Positions 4,435 to 55,843 of a stretch of 55,976 bases of DNA are shown piece by piece. Under the pieces are notes generated by a model, which was given only the letters and a program-made list of their open reading frames with translations, was not told the origin of the DNA and made no database searches. Each line of letters opens with the position of its first letter. Positions within the stretch are counted from its first letter, which is position 1. Made by a program: the position numbers and the translations under genes. The stretch is from Candidatus Azambacteria bacterium (lineage in GTDB: Bacteria; Patescibacteriota; Minisyncoccia; GWC2-36-17; WO2-46-25), in assembly GCA_016234725.1 (NCBI GenBank), contig JACRAK010000029.1, forward strand, positions 1-55,976, read 5' to 3'.

Positions 4435-6753
4435 GGCAAGCTGCCGCGTGCCTACCTTCTTTTGCATCCCTTCAAGCGGTAAAACAACGTAAAACGTCGA
4501 CCCCTTCCCTTCTTCCGACTCAAACCAGATGCTCCCATGCACGTGCTCAACGATCGATTTCACGAGATACAGCCCGAGCCCCGTTCCCTCCGGATCGCGT
4601 TCGCGCACGTTGTCGGCGCGGAACATTTTCGTGAACACCTTATCCTGCTGCTCTTTGGGAATGCCATATCCGGTATCTGCGACCATGATCAGCAGCGTCT
4701 CCCGGATCATTTTCCTTCCGTTCACCGCCTGCCCTTTTTTAACCGCTTCAACGGTAAGCGCTATATTCCCCTTCTCCGGCGTGTATTTTACCGCATTCGA
4801 GATCAGATTCTGGAAAATGATGCGCATGAGCTTTGGGTCAGCCATCATCTGCGGGATGTCTTTTGCGTACGATTCTTTTACAACGATCTTTTTCTTTTTG
4901 ATCGTTTGCTTCATATCCGTCAGCACCGCCTTCACCGTGGTCGTCACATGCATAGGTACCGGCTCCACCATGAACGTGCCCATTTCAAAGCGAGACACAT
5001 TCAGAAGCGCGTCCACAAGCTCCACCATGCGTTTGTTGCCCCGATAGATCTCTTCCAAATATTTTTTCTGCTCTTTAGTGATCTTTCCCGCATCCCCGTC
5101 AAGCAACATCTCGCTGTACCAGTTGATGCTTGAAAGCGGTGTGCGCAATTGATGCGACGCGAGCGACACGAATTCGGTCTTCGCGCGGTCGATCTCCTTT
5201 TCTTTCGTCACGTCGTCAAACACCACCGCAATGAACCGGAGCGCTCCCGCATCATCCCGCACCGGCACCGCCGCCATGCGAAGCGCGATCACCCTCCCGC
5301 TCAGTTCTTCTATATACAAGTCATTCTTTGTCACCGCATGCCCAGACTGCAATACGACATTCACGGGAAGTTCCTCGAAAGGATACTGCTCGCCGCTTTC
5401 TTTTTTTATTCGCTCCCACCGTTGCGGATCGTTCTCAAAATCATTCCCCAGCAGCGCGGCGGCGCGCCCGTTTAACGCTATGATCTCCCCTCGCGGCGCG
5501 CGCATCATGAGCACGCCCAGCGGCAGATTTTCAAGCAGCACGGCGAGCTTCTTTTTTTCTTCTTCCATCCATCGCTGGCGCTCTTCAAGCGATGCCGTCA
5601 TCGCATTGAACGCATGCCCGAGATCTTCGATCTCGTCGCCCGTCCGCGCGACCGTTGCGCGATGGCGCAAATTACCCGCCCGCGCTATTTCCGCGCTTTC
5701 CCGCAGTGCTTTGATGGGTTTCGTGAATATCCGAGATATGAAAAATGAGAGAATGCCGATGAGCGCGGCGAGTACGGCGACAGTGCCATAAAAGCGCGTT
5801 TGCGCCTCTTGCACCGGCAAAAACGCTTCATGCTTATCGATGTCCACGACAAGTACCATCCCTCTCCCTACCAAACACATCGAAGCGCCGAGCACCGTCG
5901 CGCCAGAATGATCCACGTATTCGCCAAGGACCTCTTTTCCGTTCTCCAAGCATTCCCGCACCGGCAGTGTATTTACGCTCACATCATGCGCGGGGTCTAT
6001 CTCTTTCCTGACCGGATGCAAGATAACGCTTCTTTCGCGATCAACGATATACACATGAAGCGTTTTCGTATTCCCGCCAACGAGCGACTCCAGATCCGCA
6101 TTCTCTCTGGTGATGAAATTCGCCGAAAGAATAATTTCCAGCTTATGGGGGTCAAATACATTCACGATGATGCCCAGAAATTCATGGGTGTCTTTATCGG
6201 TGATCGGCACCGCGACCACGAAAGGAGAGATGATGCCAAAGTGAACGTCTCCCAGGGCGGTGCGCACCAGCACCGCCGCCGCTTGTCCTTCTCTGAAATA
6301 CACATCATTGGATTCGTTCTTGCCGATCTCTTTCTCATCGGTTGATGCGATAATAATGCCGTCTTTATTCAGTATCGAGATGCCGGCGAGCTTTTCATCA
6401 AGCGGCTTCTTGTTCACCGAAAGATGCCTGCTGAGCGCTTCTTGGCTCGCCGCAGAACCGGTAGCAATGAGCCGCTTCGTTTCGTCGCGTATATACCCGT
6501 CCGAAGAAAAATCAACTGTCCGCGAAGTGATGTTGTTGAAATATTCAAGCACGCGCACTTCTTTCGACTCCGCCAACAACACGAGTGTATTGAAGAGCTC
6601 TTTTTTCATGATCTCTTGTTCATTGCGTATATAGAGAACACCGAATACCGCCATCGGGAGTAGGCCCGCAAAAAACAAAAAGAATGCGAGCTTCGTGCCG
6701 ATCTTCACGCGAAAATAAGAACGGGATGTTTTTTCCTTTTCTTCGTTCTGCAT
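4429..6753 (-). CDS. Membrane sensor histidine kinase (extracytoplasmic Cache-like, HAMP, PAS, HisKA, HATPase)
   Basis: Two TM helices; HAMP (GDEIEDLGHAFNAM); H-box SHQLRTPL; N-box QNLISNAVKYT; DTGYGI; GTGLGL. Confidence 0.93.
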   Translation of the reverse strand: MQNEEKEKTSRSYFRVKIGTKLAFFLFFAGLLPMAVFGVLYIRNEQEIMKKELFNTLVLLAESKEVRVLEYFNNITSRTVDFSSDGYIRDETKRLIATGSAASQEALSRHLSVNKKPLDEKLAGISILNKDGIIIASTDEKEIGKNESNDVYFREGQAAAVLVRTALGDVHFGIISPFVVAVPITDKDTHEFLGIIVNVFDPHKLEIILSANFITRENADLESLVGGNTKTLHVYIVDRERSVILHPVRKEIDPAHDVSVNTLPVRECLENGKEVLGEYVDHSGATVLGASMCLVGRGMVLVVDIDKHEAFLPVQEAQTRFYGTVAVLAALIGILSFFISRIFTKPIKALRESAEIARAGNLRHRATVARTGDEIEDLGHAFNAMTASLEERQRWMEEEKKKLAVLLENLPLGVLMMRAPRGEIIALNGRAAALLGNDFENDPQRWERIKKESGEQYPFEELPVNVVLQSGHAVTKNDLYIEELSGRVIALRMAAVPVRDDAGALRFIAVVFDDVTKEKEIDRAKTEFVSLASHQLRTPLSSINWYSEMLLDGDAGKITKEQKKYLEEIYRGNKRMVELVDALLNVSRFEMGTFMVEPVPMHVTTTVKAVLTDMKQTIKKKKIVVKESYAKDIPQMMADPKLMRIIFQNLISNAVKYTPEKGNIALTVEAVKKGQAVNGRKMIRETLLIMVADTGYGIPKEQQDKVFTKMFRADNVRERDPEGTGLGLYLVKSIVEHVHGSIWFESEEGKGSTFYVVLPLEGMQKKVGTRQLAP

Positions 6754-8327: not shown

Positions 8328-9047
8328 TTATTTATATGTACCGTATTTTCTAAATCGAATCAACTCCCGAAATGCATACACTTCTTTTTTTGCAGATAAT
8401 TGGATCTTAAAACCACTTCTATTCGGATGAAAACCAAGCATGCGAAGCCCCCTGTCTACATCACTTAACAATATCGGATTTTTGTTTGAAAACAACATTT
8501 TATATGTTCCCGTCGGCTTATGAACACAAAAACTCCCCTCCGCTTCATACAACCCGCGCAAACAGCGTATCAGCAATTTTTTATTTCGCCAAACCCACAA
8601 AGGAACACCGACCGTACTGTTTTTTCTGTTTCCCGTTGGAACGCCCAGTCGCCTGCTAATGTGTTTTTCATAAATACTAATGCGGATGCACTGTGCGGTT
8701 TTTACTTTCATGCATCGGGGCTCTTTTTTAAAAATTTTTCTCACGATCATGGTATATCGCAAAACGAACCCTGTATTATTGGCATTCGCCGCGATAATAA
8801 GACGCTCCGTTCTGGGAAACGCTTGAATATGCCCGTCGCCGAGAACAACACCGATGAGCTCCGCTAAATAGCCTGTCTTTGGAAAGGAACCATACTTGCT
8901 TTTTATCTTCCCTCTCCTTCTCATTTCTTTCCGCCATTTTGAAAAATTATCAATGTGCTTCGCGCGCATTGTTTCCGAGATTTTTTTGACAGATGGATGA
9001 GTATCTTTCGTAAACCCTCTGCTCCACCCCTTTTTTGCATTATCCAT
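8328..9047 (-). CDS. Free-standing double-motif LAGLIDADG homing endonuclease-like protein
   Basis: Two helices, LAELIGVVLGDG and CLRGLYEAEG; very basic; AT-richer than its neighbours; probable start MDNAKKG. Confidence 0.8.
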   Translation of the reverse strand: MDNAKKGWSRGFTKDTHPSVKKISETMRAKHIDNFSKWRKEMRRRGKIKSKYGSFPKTGYLAELIGVVLGDGHIQAFPRTERLIIAANANNTGFVLRYTMIVRKIFKKEPRCMKVKTAQCIRISIYEKHISRRLGVPTGNRKNSTVGVPLWVWRNKKLLIRCLRGLYEAEGSFCVHKPTGTYKMLFSNKNPILLSDVDRGLRMLGFHPNRSGFKIQLSAKKEVYAFRELIRFRKYGTYK

Positions 9048-9154
9048 GCTTCCAGCATAGCATACATGCAAAAATTTTCCTACCATTAGACGATAATGCG
9101 GTCAAAAAATAATGCGTGCTTTTGAAAAAGCACGCGCAGTATAGCCCAACGCCG

Positions 9155-12821: not shown

Positions 12822-13177
12822 GCCGCGAACGCATACAGCGCAACGATAAGCCAGCACACGGACGCGATGAGCGCCGCTCCCGCCATCATGTCTTTGATAT
12901 GCTTTATCTCCTCAAGCTCTGCCGGCAACAGGAGGTCCATTGCTTTTTCGATCGCGGTATTCATCAACTCAACAATAAGCAATAGCGCGCTTGCAAGAAC
13001 CAACGCGATCTTATATGAAGACGGGATCGGCTTGGACCCGAGCACGATGATCGCCGCGATCGCCGCGTATACCATAAGCCGAAAATTCAATCCTCCCCAA
13101 AATGCGTGATGCAACCCCCGGAATGCGTGCGGGAAACTTTTAAGGACTTTCTTTGCTTTTACTATGTTTTTTTTCAT
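12818..13177 (-). CDS. dgkA: Diacylglycerol/undecaprenol kinase DgkA family
   Basis: SFPHAFRGL, VELMNTAIEKAMD and IKDMMAGA. Confidence 0.88.
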   Translation of the reverse strand: MKKNIVKAKKVLKSFPHAFRGLHHAFWGGLNFRLMVYAAIAAIIVLGSKPIPSSYKIALVLASALLLIVELMNTAIEKAMDLLLPAELEEIKHIKDMMAGAALIASVCWLIVALYAFAA

Positions 13178-13344
13178 TGTATTTTTCGTGCGGACGGCAT
13201 GCCGCTCCCCAGCGGCGCGATCGCCGCGTGCTCGATCATGGACGGCGCCATGTCTTTCGTGCCGCGCTGCAACAGGAAAAAAGCATACCCTGCGACAAGT
13301 ATCGCTACAAACCCAACGCCCGCGGCAATAAAAAAGTATTTCAT
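13174..13344 (-). CDS. Small single-TM protein (56 aa)
   Basis: MKYFFIAAGVGFVAILVAGYAFFLLQRG...; fills the gap exactly and overlaps the dgkA start (ATGA). Confidence 0.6.
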   Translation of the reverse strand: MKYFFIAAGVGFVAILVAGYAFFLLQRGTKDMAPSMIEHAAIAPLGSGMPSARKIQ

Positions 13345-13350
13345 ATACGC

Positions 13351-13545
13351 TTACCCTATTTCTTTTCGATGCCCCTCGGCATCGTATTCATACATCTTCC
13401 CTTCTTCCTCATCTTTTGTCATGCGGCATGAGCTGTCGCAAAACGGCTGATTCTTGGACAAGCCGCACATGCATATCCGCACCGACCCCTCTTTTGGTGT
13501 CATTTCATACGGACCTTTTGCGTCTTTTATAACTCGCCGCGCCAT
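13351..13545 (-). CDS. CDGSH-type iron-sulfur domain protein (variant motif CDSSC)
   Basis: GPY...ICMCGLSKNQPFCDSSC matches the C-x-C-x2-S-x3-P-x-C-D-G-S-H pattern except G>S and H>C. Confidence 0.85.
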   Translation of the reverse strand: MARRVIKDAKGPYEMTPKEGSVRICMCGLSKNQPFCDSSCRMTKDEEEGKMYEYDAEGHRKEIG

Positions 13546-13620
13546 AGTGCAGTGATTACCGGTATTCTCTCATTCTAACAGATTTTTGCCGACATAGAAA
13601 ATAACTCATACCGTAAAAGA

Positions 13621-13652
13621 AAGCCCGGCCGGTTGAAAAACCGGTCGGGCTT
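13621..13652. terminator. Intrinsic terminator
   Basis: aagcccggccggtt-gaaa-aaccggtcgggctt. Confidence 0.6.
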
Positions 13653-13656
13653 GAAA

Positions 13657-14109
13657 CTATAACATCTCTTTAAAAGGCGTTTTCGCAAAGAAGCGGACGC
13701 TGTTTGGAACCTCTTCTATCGCGACCCGCACGATCTTCCACCCTTTTCTTATGCCGATTTCTTTTCCCCAGAGACCATGAGCGTCTCGTATCGACGCCCA
13801 GAAAATGCCCCGCACTGCTGTTGCCTTTTCGTGTAACCCTCCTGCTGATTCCGGGCATAAAACTCTCTTGGGAATCTTATGCCCTAATGCTCGACGCATT
13901 TCTTGGTCAAACGCTCCATCTCCTTTTTCCTGATATCTTTCGGCAAGTGCATACAGCTTTTTGTATCCTTCGCTCACCACCCCCACCACATGTTCTCCCG
14001 GGGCAACTTCATCTATCGGTTTAAATTCATCGGGGTCAATCCCGTCTATTTCCTGCAACAGCGTATACATCCACTCCGCCGCAACCCCATCCCCTTTTTG
14101 TTTTTTCAT
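13657..14109 (-). CDS. Hypothetical protein
   Basis: 150-aa ORF with GGGGGTGTGG upstream of the ATG and a terminator downstream. Confidence 0.65.
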   Translation of the reverse strand: MKKQKGDGVAAEWMYTLLQEIDGIDPDEFKPIDEVAPGEHVVGVVSEGYKKLYALAERYQEKGDGAFDQEMRRALGHKIPKRVLCPESAGGLHEKATAVRGIFWASIRDAHGLWGKEIGIRKGWKIVRVAIEEVPNSVRFFAKTPFKEML

Positions 14110-14228
14110 ACCACACCCCCTATTTTAAGATTTTTTGTGTTTTGATTTTTAAAGACCCGCTGCCTGTTTCTTATTGATATACCATATCCGTTTAAAAAAG
14201 CAAGAAGCGGCATTGTACCGCTCGTTAA

Positions 14229-14645
14229 TTATAAATCAACCTTAGTTAATTTATCACATAAATCATTTATTGAATCAAATTCAATGAGCGGCTCGGCCAA
14301 CTCCGCCAAAAAAGTGGTTTTTGTTCCTCGCTTCAGCGCAAGTGCGAACGATTTGCCTTTCGCTAACATATAGCCGATTTCCAATAACATTCCTTCGCTT
14401 TTTTGGTCAGATCTTACAAACGCTAAAATTACATCGCTTTTATCGAGCCGCTCTAAAGCATGGTTTAGAATTTCTTTGTTTGTTTTGTGATTCTCCTTAA
14501 ACCATTTTTCATCCTCTATTGAACAATAAACAGTGTGCCCGACAGATCGCAAGACAGACAAAATTTTTCCGAGCGTCTCAGTCAACTCATGTATGTCTTC
14601 GCCTGTAAATCTGTAAACTAGATAAATGTTTTTTGGTTCGTTCAT
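14229..14645 (-). CDS. Nucleoside 2-deoxyribosyltransferase-like protein
   Basis: IYLVYRF, LDKSDVILAF and SEGMLLEIGY motifs; AT-rich. Confidence 0.72.
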   Translation of the reverse strand: MNEPKNIYLVYRFTGEDIHELTETLGKILSVLRSVGHTVYCSIEDEKWFKENHKTNKEILNHALERLDKSDVILAFVRSDQKSEGMLLEIGYMLAKGKSFALALKRGTKTTFLAELAEPLIEFDSINDLCDKLTKVDL

Positions 14646-14656
14646 AAAGTTTATAT

Positions 14657-14720
14657 TGGAGCGGGATACCAGAATGGTTCGACAAGCTCACCACAGGGCG
14701 AACTGGCGTCTGTTGCTTGG
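14657..14720 (-). pseudogene. 3' half of a tRNA-Gly with a 23-nt palindromic insertion in the T-loop
   Basis: Minus strand CC-AA-GCAAC-AGAC-GCCAG-TTCG[ccctgtggtgagcttgtcgaacc]ATT-CTGGT-ATCCCGC-TCCA; no matching 5' half found nearby. Confidence 0.8.
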
Positions 14721-14748
14721 CCCCGCAAAAATTTACTGACACTTGAGC

Positions 14749-14820
14749 CACGACTCGGCTTTCGGCCTCGCTGGGCTGCTATTTGTTGCCAATCGCTTCG
14801 CTCTCGGACAAATAGGGAGC
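14749..14820. mobile_element. Family B element inserted at the 3' end of tRNA-Gly(CCC)
   Basis: cacgactcggc...ccaatcgcttcgctctcggacaaatagggagc, preceded by gagc. Confidence 0.78.
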
Positions 14821-14888
14821 GGGTAGCGGGAATCGGACCCGCGTCTCAACCTTGGGAAGGTCGCATAATGCCATTATACTATACCCGC
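14818..14888 (-). tRNA. tRNA-Gly(CCC), CCA not encoded
   Basis: GCGGGTA...TACCCGC-T; loop TT-CCC-AA. Confidence 0.93.
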
Positions 14889-14899
14889 ATTTTTGTATC

Positions 14900-15073
14900 G
14901 CCAGCACCCGTTATTCTTTCTTTTATCTTAACGGAAGCCACGACTACACTATCGCTCCGCTGGACTGCTGTTTGTTGCCAATCGCTTCGCTCTTGGACAA
15001 ACAGGGAGCGCAGCCCTCCCATAATTATGATAAAAGGCGTGAGCGGATTAAAGAAAGAATGATGGATGCTGGC
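14900..15073. mobile_element. Family C palindromic element, copy 1, interrupted by a family B element (14939-15009)
   Basis: Stem gccagcacccgttattctttcttt / aaagaaagaatgatggatgctggc; cores ttaacggaagc[B]gcagccc and gcgtgagcgga. Confidence 0.82.
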
Positions 15074-15083
15074 AGAATATTTC

Positions 15084-15470
15084 CTACTTCCCGAAAAGAG
15101 CGCGAAACCATTTCCGGGGGTTTGATTCTTTGCTCTCTGCCGCGCTTTGCGCGCTCTCTTTCTTTTGGATCGTTGTGTCGCGCCCGCCTACGATGATCAC
15201 CGCTTTCTCCCCTTCCTTCTGAAGATTCAGCTTTTTGCGCGCCTCTTTCTCCACGTACGCATCGTCGTTGAGGCGCTTGATGAGCACATGCAGGTCGTCG
15301 CTTTTTGCGCTTAATGCCTTCAACTCTCCGTCGATGGTTGAAATATGTTTCGTTATCTGATACTTTTCATATGAGACGCGCCCCACCTTATATACCAATA
15401 CGCCCGCAATTGCCACAAGTGCGAGCGCCACGATCATCGTCTTTCTCCCTTTGGCGGTACGGCGGCTCAT
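15084..15470 (-). CDS. Septum formation initiator (FtsB/DivIC family)
   Basis: TM helix, coiled coil and YVEKEARKKLNLQKEGEK. Confidence 0.85.
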   Translation of the reverse strand: MSRRTAKGRKTMIVALALVAIAGVLVYKVGRVSYEKYQITKHISTIDGELKALSAKSDDLHVLIKRLNDDAYVEKEARKKLNLQKEGEKAVIIVGGRDTTIQKKESAQSAAESKESNPRKWFRALFGK

Positions 15471-15493
15471 ACGCACCAATAATAGCTAATTCC

Positions 15494-23153: not shown

Positions 23154-23590
23154 AAGATGTACGTAAGCCGGATTCTGTTCCGCCAGCCGGAAAACCGGCC
23201 GGTCGGCGACGATCATTTCTCTTGTCACCGCATTACTGCGGTGATCATGCGACTACCTGCTTTCAAGGAAAGCATATTGTCTTGCACCCGACAAGGATTT
23301 GGCCGTTTCACCCCCGGTGTTGCCATCGGGGCTCGCCCTTGCTCGCTTGCGCGAGAAGGGCGCCTTCCGTCTTTCGTTGGAAAGCGTCTCTGTTCGCACC
23401 TCTAAGGTCGCCCTCGACGGCCGTTAGCCGCTGCCGTTGCCCGCCCAAATTTTTTATCTCTTGACTTTTTGTCGCGCATGCGCAAACGGCGTTTTTCGCG
23501 TTCGCAAAAAATAAAAAATTTGGGCGGGCGGGTGTCCGGACTTTCCTCTCCCCCGCGTTACCGCGTGAGAGCGATCGTCTGTGCATCTTA
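23154..23590 (-). ncRNA. rnpB: RNase P RNA with a family F-like hairpin insertion
   Basis: Universal motifs GAGGAAAGTCC and AACAGAATCCGGCTTA; P1 AAGATGCAC/GTACATCTT. Confidence 0.95.
23440..23528. mobile_element. Family F-like element inside rnpB
   Basis: cccgcccaaatttttta / taaaaaatttgggcggg, perfect 17-bp inverted repeat. Confidence 0.8.
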
Positions 23591-55554: not shown

Positions 55555-55843
55555 CGGGCTGTAGTACCTGCCCGCCATAAGCCTAACACGTGGTCGCCAC
55601 GGTATTCGCCGGAATATATTACTCTGTACTCCTGTGTATTTCTCTGACAGGCGATTGGCAGGCGGGCAATGGCAGTACGCATGCACTTGCCCGCCCAAGT
55701 TTTTCATCGGGCCATCGTATAGTGGTAGTACGCAAGGCTGGGGGTCTTGTAGTCTGGGTTCGATTCCCAGTGGCCCGAAAGATAAAAACTTAGGCGGGTG
55801 AAGGGTGCATGTAGTCCGAGTTCGATTCTCGGCATCCCGACCA
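55555..55843 (+). tRNA. Outer tRNA-Pro (probably UGG) interrupted by two palindromic insertions; function uncertain
   Basis: Exons CGGGCTGTAGTA | CAATGGCAGTACGCATGCACTTG | GGGTGCATGTAGTCCGAGTTCGATTCTCGGCATCCCGACCA; C1-G72 and A73 Pro identity, encoded CCA; inserts at 55567-55666 and about 55690-55802. Confidence 0.75.
55708..55778 (+). tRNA. Inner tRNA-Pro(GGG), intact, nested in the anticodon-loop insertion of the outer tRNA
   Basis: CGGGCCA...TGGCCCG-A; anticodon arm CAAGG-CTGGGGG-TCTTG; T-arm CTGGG-TTCGATT-CCCAG. Confidence 0.93.

Follow-up and report, generated by a model that had tools for sequence, protein, structure and literature searches.

The window, by which we mean the whole stretch of 55,976 nucleotides analysed here, is contig C19 of a 923-kb genome in 32 contigs, labelled G000. 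G001–G010 denote relatives from the same family, with genomes of 0.5–1.2 Mb and with G002 in the same genus, and L-numbers denote further loci that were compared. The locus of interest lies on the minus strand downstream of divIC (Table 1). All parts named there by a first-pass annotation made from the sequence alone, namely an intact tRNA-Gly(CCC), a family B element, an arm, a 3′ half joined to this arm at CC-AA and an encoded CCA, were found as placed. The intact gene is the only intact Gly(CCC) gene found in G000, which has three intact Gly genes when all anticodons are counted. A short CTC duplication is presumed at its 3′ end, where the B hairpin follows. The 3′ half reads, in order, CC-AA, the anticodon stem strand GCAAC, a 4-nt variable loop, the T arm, the acceptor strand and CCA.

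Table 1. Features of the tRNA-Gly(CCC) locus and a comparison locus, in window coordinates.
Feature	Position	Strand	Remarks
divIC (septum formation initiator), upstream synteny anchor	15084..15479	-	PF04977, E 5.6e-12
Fold-back repeat E with a B copy inside (14933-15008)	14900..15073	-	Similar element at the same site in G001
Intact tRNA-Gly(CCC)	14816..14888	-	ARAGORN; Rfam 59.4 bits
B hairpin repeat at tRNA 3′ end	14745..14817	-	Complete Thr nest (C13) has a related hairpin at this place
10-nt spacer	14735..14744	-	Same length as the spacer 3′ of the inner tRNA in other Gly(CCC) cassettes, up to their right arm
Right inverted-repeat arm of cassette, 14 nt, AAATTTTTGCGGGG	14721..14734	-	Identical in G002
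Displaced 3′ half of another tRNA-Gly(CCC) allele, from position 35	14657..14720	-	Encoded CCA ends at 14657
23-nt hairpin-repeat insert in T loop of displaced half	14676..14698	-	Related insert at about the same place in G010
Nucleoside 2-deoxyribosyltransferase-like gene	14229..14645	-	Absent at the site in G003 and G004; other gene in G002
Complete Pro-in-Pro nest, comparison locus	55555..55843	+	

As far as testable, the locus is no assembly artefact: a separately assembled contig of run X1 spans 13000-14852 with 0 differences to the window, an agreement that is no independent confirmation because X1 is probably the source sample. Of the genome's words, 98% are present in one groundwater run, which, like the size of the genome and of its relatives, would suit a member of the Patescibacteria (CPR). 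The fold-back repeat upstream of the tRNA has 20 listed copies in G000 (14900-15073, 26175, 27088, 33157 and others on other contigs), with a conserved core and with outer arms that are copy-specific yet still complementary; by eye, its right part resembles the end of a GIY-YIG gene.

The 3′ half reaches a score of 51, whereas 60 random stretches used as background give at most 32, and it is 40/41 identical to an allele of another genome; judged by these sequence comparisons, it is not a chance resemblance. With the 23-nt T-loop insert set aside, and among 60 alleles compared, its closest counterparts are intact Gly(CCC) genes of other genomes (40/41 for L040, 39/41 for L039), both of which, by eye, have a divIC-like gene upstream. 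Against the three intact Gly genes of G000, identity is only 27/41, 27/41 and 28/40, the last value being that of the neighbouring gene, with which the fragment would pair at 1/5 positions of the anticodon stem and 5/7 of the acceptor stem. Since the nearest alleles are CCC, we assign the half to the CCC isoacceptor and have dropped a reading of its anticodon as GCC. The fragment is thus a fourth Gly allele of G000, a CCC isoacceptor that has lost its partner. The first-pass annotation spoke of a different tRNA-Gly; this holds for the allele, and the relation is closer than a common amino acid, as both genes are of the same isoacceptor. ARAGORN and Rfam both miss the 3′ half, for which the T-loop insert, not noted in the first-pass annotation, probably accounts, and Rfam returned no family for the fragment or for the hairpins.

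The 5′ half and left arm, reported missing at the locus, are indeed absent there, and no orphan 5′ half was found elsewhere in the 923-kb assembly by motif scans or by short BLAST with four allele queries, whose best matches (E 0.24 or worse) were D arms of other tRNAs only. A left arm CCCCGCAAAAATTT had been predicted, which proved only approximately right: the real matching left arms read (C/T)TTACCCCGTTAAATTTT, and the sole exact genomic match of CCCCGCAAAAATTT lies within a tRNA-Trp nest. Extra Gly calls were obtained in intron mode at a relaxed threshold on contigs C23 and C27; the call on C23 sits in coding-like sequence and was rejected.

The locus was recovered in 10 genomes of the family including G000, and not in G009. 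Parts of a nest, i.e. of a complete tRNA gene lying inside the halves of another, occur at the divIC site in six of these 10, and the remaining four (G003, G004, G007 and G008) carry a plain gene. Full nests are present in G002 and, with another arm type, in G006, so that the nested arrangement sought by the first-pass annotation in relatives does exist. Only the 5′ side is found in G005, and G001 shows a left arm before the tRNA, followed by the contig end; only the 3′ side remains in G000 and G010, the latter with a related T-loop insert. In G002, the orthologous site next to divIC has, in order, the 5′ half up to position 34, the left arm, an inner Gly(CCC) gene, the right arm and the 3′ half. 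Its left arm is broken up by B-type hairpins, its right arm is the same 14 nt as in G000, and its outer anticodon stem pairs at 3/5 positions with a 1-nt loss. The young nests G006 and L089 pair fully. Compensatory changes in the T stem distinguish the 3′ halves of G000 and G002, and the inner alleles of the two genomes are only 81% alike. This fits separate events and supports the recurring process that had been suggested. The two displaced halves have the same acceptor type.

Outside the family, parts of a nest occur at three of 16 recovered loci (G026, G027 and G031). A search for the junction pattern matched 17 of 401 genomes of the class, compared with 6 matches for the reversed control; real loci number six (G000, G006, G010, G117, G138 and G189), which is a floor since the pattern missed the nest of G002. 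The left-junction pattern gave two matches in the 401 genomes, both due to chance, and the left-arm pattern five in 301 genomes, comprising three Gly nests found before by the other searches, one Ile nest and one chance match. Pattern loci in metagenomes and viruses amount to at least 124 (at least 118 metagenomic and 6 viral). A Gly(CCC) gene lies upstream of the arm in 13 of the 124 listed, 10 of them distinct, and 111 are not Gly(CCC) loci; a cassette was seen in none of 10 viral pattern loci inspected. Among the matches listed, Gly(CCC) loci show the left arm (C/T)TTACCCCGTTAAATTTT, and at several of them nests that combine two arm types are stacked in layers. The 5′ half of these loci is either intact, reduced to a short stub beside the left arm (L102, L123, L156 and L178) or gone (L162 and L177). 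T-loop inserts in displaced halves are found in G000, G010, G189, L102, L118 and L140.

Nesting is not confined to Gly. By eye, about 13 of the 43 intact tRNA genes of G000 are nested like-in-like, within what is left of a gene with the same amino acid specificity; ten of them lie in an anticodon loop (Val TAC, Val CAC, Glu CTC, Thr, Trp, Pro GGG, Pro CGG, Ala CGC, Leu CAG and Gly CCC) and three in a D loop (Val GAC, Ile GAT and Phe). The Thr nest on contig C13 keeps both halves and has a B-type hairpin directly 3′ of the inner tRNA, and Val(CAC) retains a 5′ stub and a 3′ half damaged in the T loop. In the complete Pro nest, complementary arms join the halves in the predicted fold (z -3.7 against shuffles); the G002 nest, for which the folded stretch lacked both ends of the outer gene's 3′ side, folds no better than shuffles (z -0.8). 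At contig C26 (14422-14700), a tRNA-Ala(CGC) sits within a second, identical copy as well as within an older allele, and the 3′ end of the tRNA recurs, inverted, in the left arm.

The arm of this family, with 31 matches compared with 3 for the reversed control, also bounds intergenic hairpins. Furthermore, the RNase P RNA gene of the window carries a non-tRNA insert (23440-23528) bounded by the CCCGCC arm family; similarly spaced arm pairs in G001, G002 and G004, and more widely spaced ones in G003, may represent the same RNase P RNA site. Locus L254 (G192, contig C13), a D-loop locus with multiple nesting, has Gly-type arms on both sides of a tRNA-Ile(GAT) whose first bases are GCGAG. Hence, the arms are not specific for Gly.

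We consider it probable that a resident tRNA-Gly(CCC) gene was split by a cassette carrying its replacement, and that a later deletion removed the 5′ half together with the left arm. A cassette made up of left arm, complete tRNA-Gly(CCC), spacer and right arm, as seen in complete copies in relatives, would have entered the resident gene of G000 after position 34, and the intact tRNA-Gly(CCC) of the window would be the cassette-borne copy. The cell would have survived because the cassette supplies the same isoacceptor, consistent with the single intact gene of this kind in the genome. The orphaned halves, no longer selected, would gather hairpin inserts and mutations, of which the T-loop insert is an observed case. 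A deletion between the two similar 5′ ends could then have taken out the old 5′ half together with the left arm; the same deletion on the 3′ side would yield the opposite half-nests, and both deletions a plain gene. A small GIY-YIG nuclease acting in trans, with host repair joining the ends, is the likely driver of the insertion, as its association with such loci suggests.

This history is supported by the full nest of G002 with its identical arm, by the left arm of G001 and by the occurrence of all stages within the family, together with stubs of 5′ halves, the matching spacer length, the decaying outer halves and the roughly 13 nests among 43 tRNA genes. Between a leader common to G000 and G001 and the tRNA, G001 has GC, then the last part of a B-type hairpin and then the left arm; in G000 the leader runs straight into the tRNA, as a deletion of the old 5′ half and left arm would give. 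The history is weakened by the lack of any trace of left arm or 5′ half at the locus itself, so that the full nest is a reconstruction, and by the flanking-gene tree, in which plain G004 falls among nest-bearing genomes, with weak inner support, and G001 is not the sister of G000. The decayed nest proposed by the first-pass annotation is the likeliest history, one that stops short of proof against a one-sided insertion.

The alternative that deserves most weight, although we regard it as clearly less probable, is that a full nest never existed here. Either a one-sided event took place, with homologous pairing at the 5′ end of the tRNA and the arm joined at the anticodon loop, or recombination within the tRNA imported arm, 3′ half and downstream gene as a block from a nested donor. 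The intact tRNA of G000 is 95% identical to the plain allele of G004 and 92% to that of G003, as expected of an old resident; however, an allele nearly identical to it is cassette-borne in G031. Compared with G003 and G004, the gene downstream of the locus is inserted, and this gene differs among genomes, G002 included. In G000, G002 and G010 alike, the 3′ half comes with a differing downstream gene, in keeping with block import; yet tRNAs that lack a displaced 3′ half (G005 and G007) are also followed by variable genes. Half-nests may be primary products, as the loci L190, L207 and L210 suggest. Against this stand the left arm kept at the site in G001 and G002, the existence of eroding 5′ stubs, and the common acceptor type of the displaced halves in these two genomes, G000 and G002, in keeping with a shared old resident. 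Under either history, the fragment remains a displaced original and the arm a member of the cassette family.

Two further readings are very improbable. According to the first, the fragment is a tandem second tRNA-Gly that lost about 28 internal bases, and GCGGGG is its own acceptor 5′ strand instead of an arm. This motif does pair with the fragment's acceptor strand in the predicted fold, and the leaders of Gly genes in the family look arm-like; but other loci read ACGGGG or TCGGGA at this place, which is no tRNA start, and have complementary left arms (CCCCG/CGGGG in L089, L102, L123, L156 and L178, TCCCG/CGGGA in L038 and L211). G002, which has the identical arm and a separate 5′ half, largely refutes this reading. 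According to the second, held to be just as improbable, the fragment is an ordinary attR of an integrase island which, after restoring the tRNA, was reduced to the B hairpin. A tRNA, a short insert and a 3′ fragment from the anticodon loop make up the Islander signature (PMC4383910), and G000 has one tyrosine and one serine recombinase match. Neither of these is close to the Gly locus, however, no integrase ORF was found in the ~95 nt between tRNA and fragment, and the pairing expected with a restored gene fails, the low stem pairing and 28/40 identity given above refuting an ordinary att duplication. True 3′-end duplicates in G000 (Gly TCC, Glu TTC and Pro TGG) are exact copies, unlike the fragment. 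An att-site duplication of an intact tRNA-Gly, with relatives never nested, was the outcome that the first-pass annotation had set against its own proposal; the half copies none of the three intact Gly genes and relatives are nested. Least probable of all is a split or intron-like tRNA whose 3′ half is joined, as RNA, to a separately made 5′ half: complementary arms unite the halves in complete nests, as in the Pro fold, young nests (G006 and L089) pair fully and the fragment keeps its CCA, but the assembly holds no partner 5′ half, the T loop is broken by the 23-nt insert, the outer halves of G002 are damaged and an intact Gly(CCC) is present.

Returning to the split by a replacement-carrying cassette, we examined 25 of the family's 46 GIY-YIG matches for a candidate mover. 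Eight of the 25 loci have a same-strand tRNA at most 200 nt downstream, and arm-bracketed GIY-YIG genes abut tRNA-Ala in G000 (contig C1) and tRNA-Gly(TCC) in G003. The Ala-in-Ala nest L211 encloses a GIY-YIG gene and is bounded by TCCCG/CGGGA, and L208 has arms of this type at the anticodon loop of an Ala 5′ half. In L085, a Gly(CCC) 5′ half broken after position 34 is followed by a GIY-YIG frame (PF01541, E 1.9e-12); next come an intact Gly(CCC) and an arm that exceeds AAATTTTTGCGGGG by one T. The GIY-YIG loci L190, L207 and L210 each combine a 5′ tRNA fragment and an intact tRNA with no displaced 3′ half. From this association, small GIY-YIG nucleases are likely the movers of the cassettes. 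This assignment is weakened by the fact that only L085 among 41 Gly(CCC) loci has such a gene, its frame lacking an ATG, GTG or TTG start and the G000 Gly locus having none. As to other enzymes, the only tyrosine integrase match of G000 lies on contig C26, and two Y1 transposase matches were found; the serine recombinase was rejected as mover, its single match lying at tRNA-Asp, where no arm of the Gly family was seen. No target duplication occurs at type I Gly junctions, and CAAG is repeated at type II junctions. In the window itself, a LAGLIDADG-like ORF (8328-9101, minus strand; PF14528, E 8e-5) lies between a tRNA-Gln-like 5′ stub (9101-9078) and an intact tRNA-Gln(CTG), possibly a nuclease-plus-tRNA replacement by a different nuclease family.

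Bacterial MITEs and REP/REPIN elements are short, non-autonomous elements with inverted-repeat ends and many copies; they are not known to carry a whole tRNA matched to the target. The cassettes resemble MITEs in being non-coding and multicopy and, in complete nests, in their terminal inverted repeats, of which the right arm alone survives in G000; they may differ in target duplication, of which no constant form is seen, and in the mover, for which GIY-YIG nucleases and not DDE or HUH transposases are the candidates. In its working, the process resembles tRNA-dependent lysogeny of actinobacteriophages, in which an element breaks a host tRNA without restoring it and brings a complete tRNA of the same isotype (PMC10865867). 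Here, too, the target is not reconstructed and a same-isotype tRNA is supplied, as observed in G002, G006 and L089 and as presumed for G000. The phage system involves a whole prophage, a tyrosine integrase and a common core of ~10 bp (PMC10865867); in contrast, the nests consist of ~110-bp non-coding cassettes with terminal arms and layered stacking and have no integrase nearby, and no phage genes were found at the Gly locus.

A GIY-YIG nuclease beside tRNA genes recalls SegB of phage T4, a free-standing homing endonuclease of the tRNA cluster that spreads itself and neighbouring tRNA genes, recognises a T-loop motif and acts by gene conversion between phages (PMC2330249). In the nests, however, it is the anticodon loop or D loop of a chromosomal gene that is broken; the old halves stay and arms flank the insert, with cleavage being putative. 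Islander islands likewise leave an intact tRNA and a downstream 3′ fragment from the anticodon loop, but there the target is restored from an attP fragment, so that the displaced fragment matches the gene (PMC4383910). In the nests the fragment is a different allele, and in relatives both halves surround a complete tRNA. A search of openly available full texts gave no account of nested tRNA replacement in these bacteria. The Gly locus is a real, probably dead remnant of an apparently undescribed process of tRNA replacement.

In these small genomes, most tRNA genes exist in a single copy; they are presumably essential and are usually taken as vertically inherited. We propose, tentatively and with somewhat less than even confidence, that the Gly locus is a frozen stage of a running cycle in which GIY-YIG nucleases and cassettes overwrite essential tRNA genes without an integrase: the anticodon loop would be broken, a gene with the same anticodon put in, both old halves would erode, and the plain gene could be hit again. 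If this were so, many ordinary-looking tRNA genes would be horizontally swapped replacements and some apparent att scars displaced originals. Within one genus, the Gly(CCC) locus presents a full nest, a 5′-side remnant, a 3′-side remnant (G000) and a plain gene; since this series gives a route to loss of the scar, replacement may be much commoner than complete nests suggest. Nor is a tRNA followed by a 3′ fragment always an integrase att site. The value of the locus lies in its place in this series and in its pointing to GIY-YIG enzymes as candidates.

Several further observations were made in G000. Short non-coding inserts that exactly duplicate the last 14-20 bases of a tRNA gene (C16 57283, 3036 and 35103; C6 17844; C26 18015) form a second family, distinct from the nests. 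A tRNA-Thr(GGT) on contig C13 (16171-16456) is split by a 212-nt group I-like intron and is uninterrupted in G004. Contig C6 carries a tRNA-Ile with anticodon TAT (6661-6733), which is rare in bacteria. Finally, clusters of degenerate heptamer repeats of the TTTCATG/TTTCAAG type occupy about 10 intergenic places of the window between 30415 and 55295.
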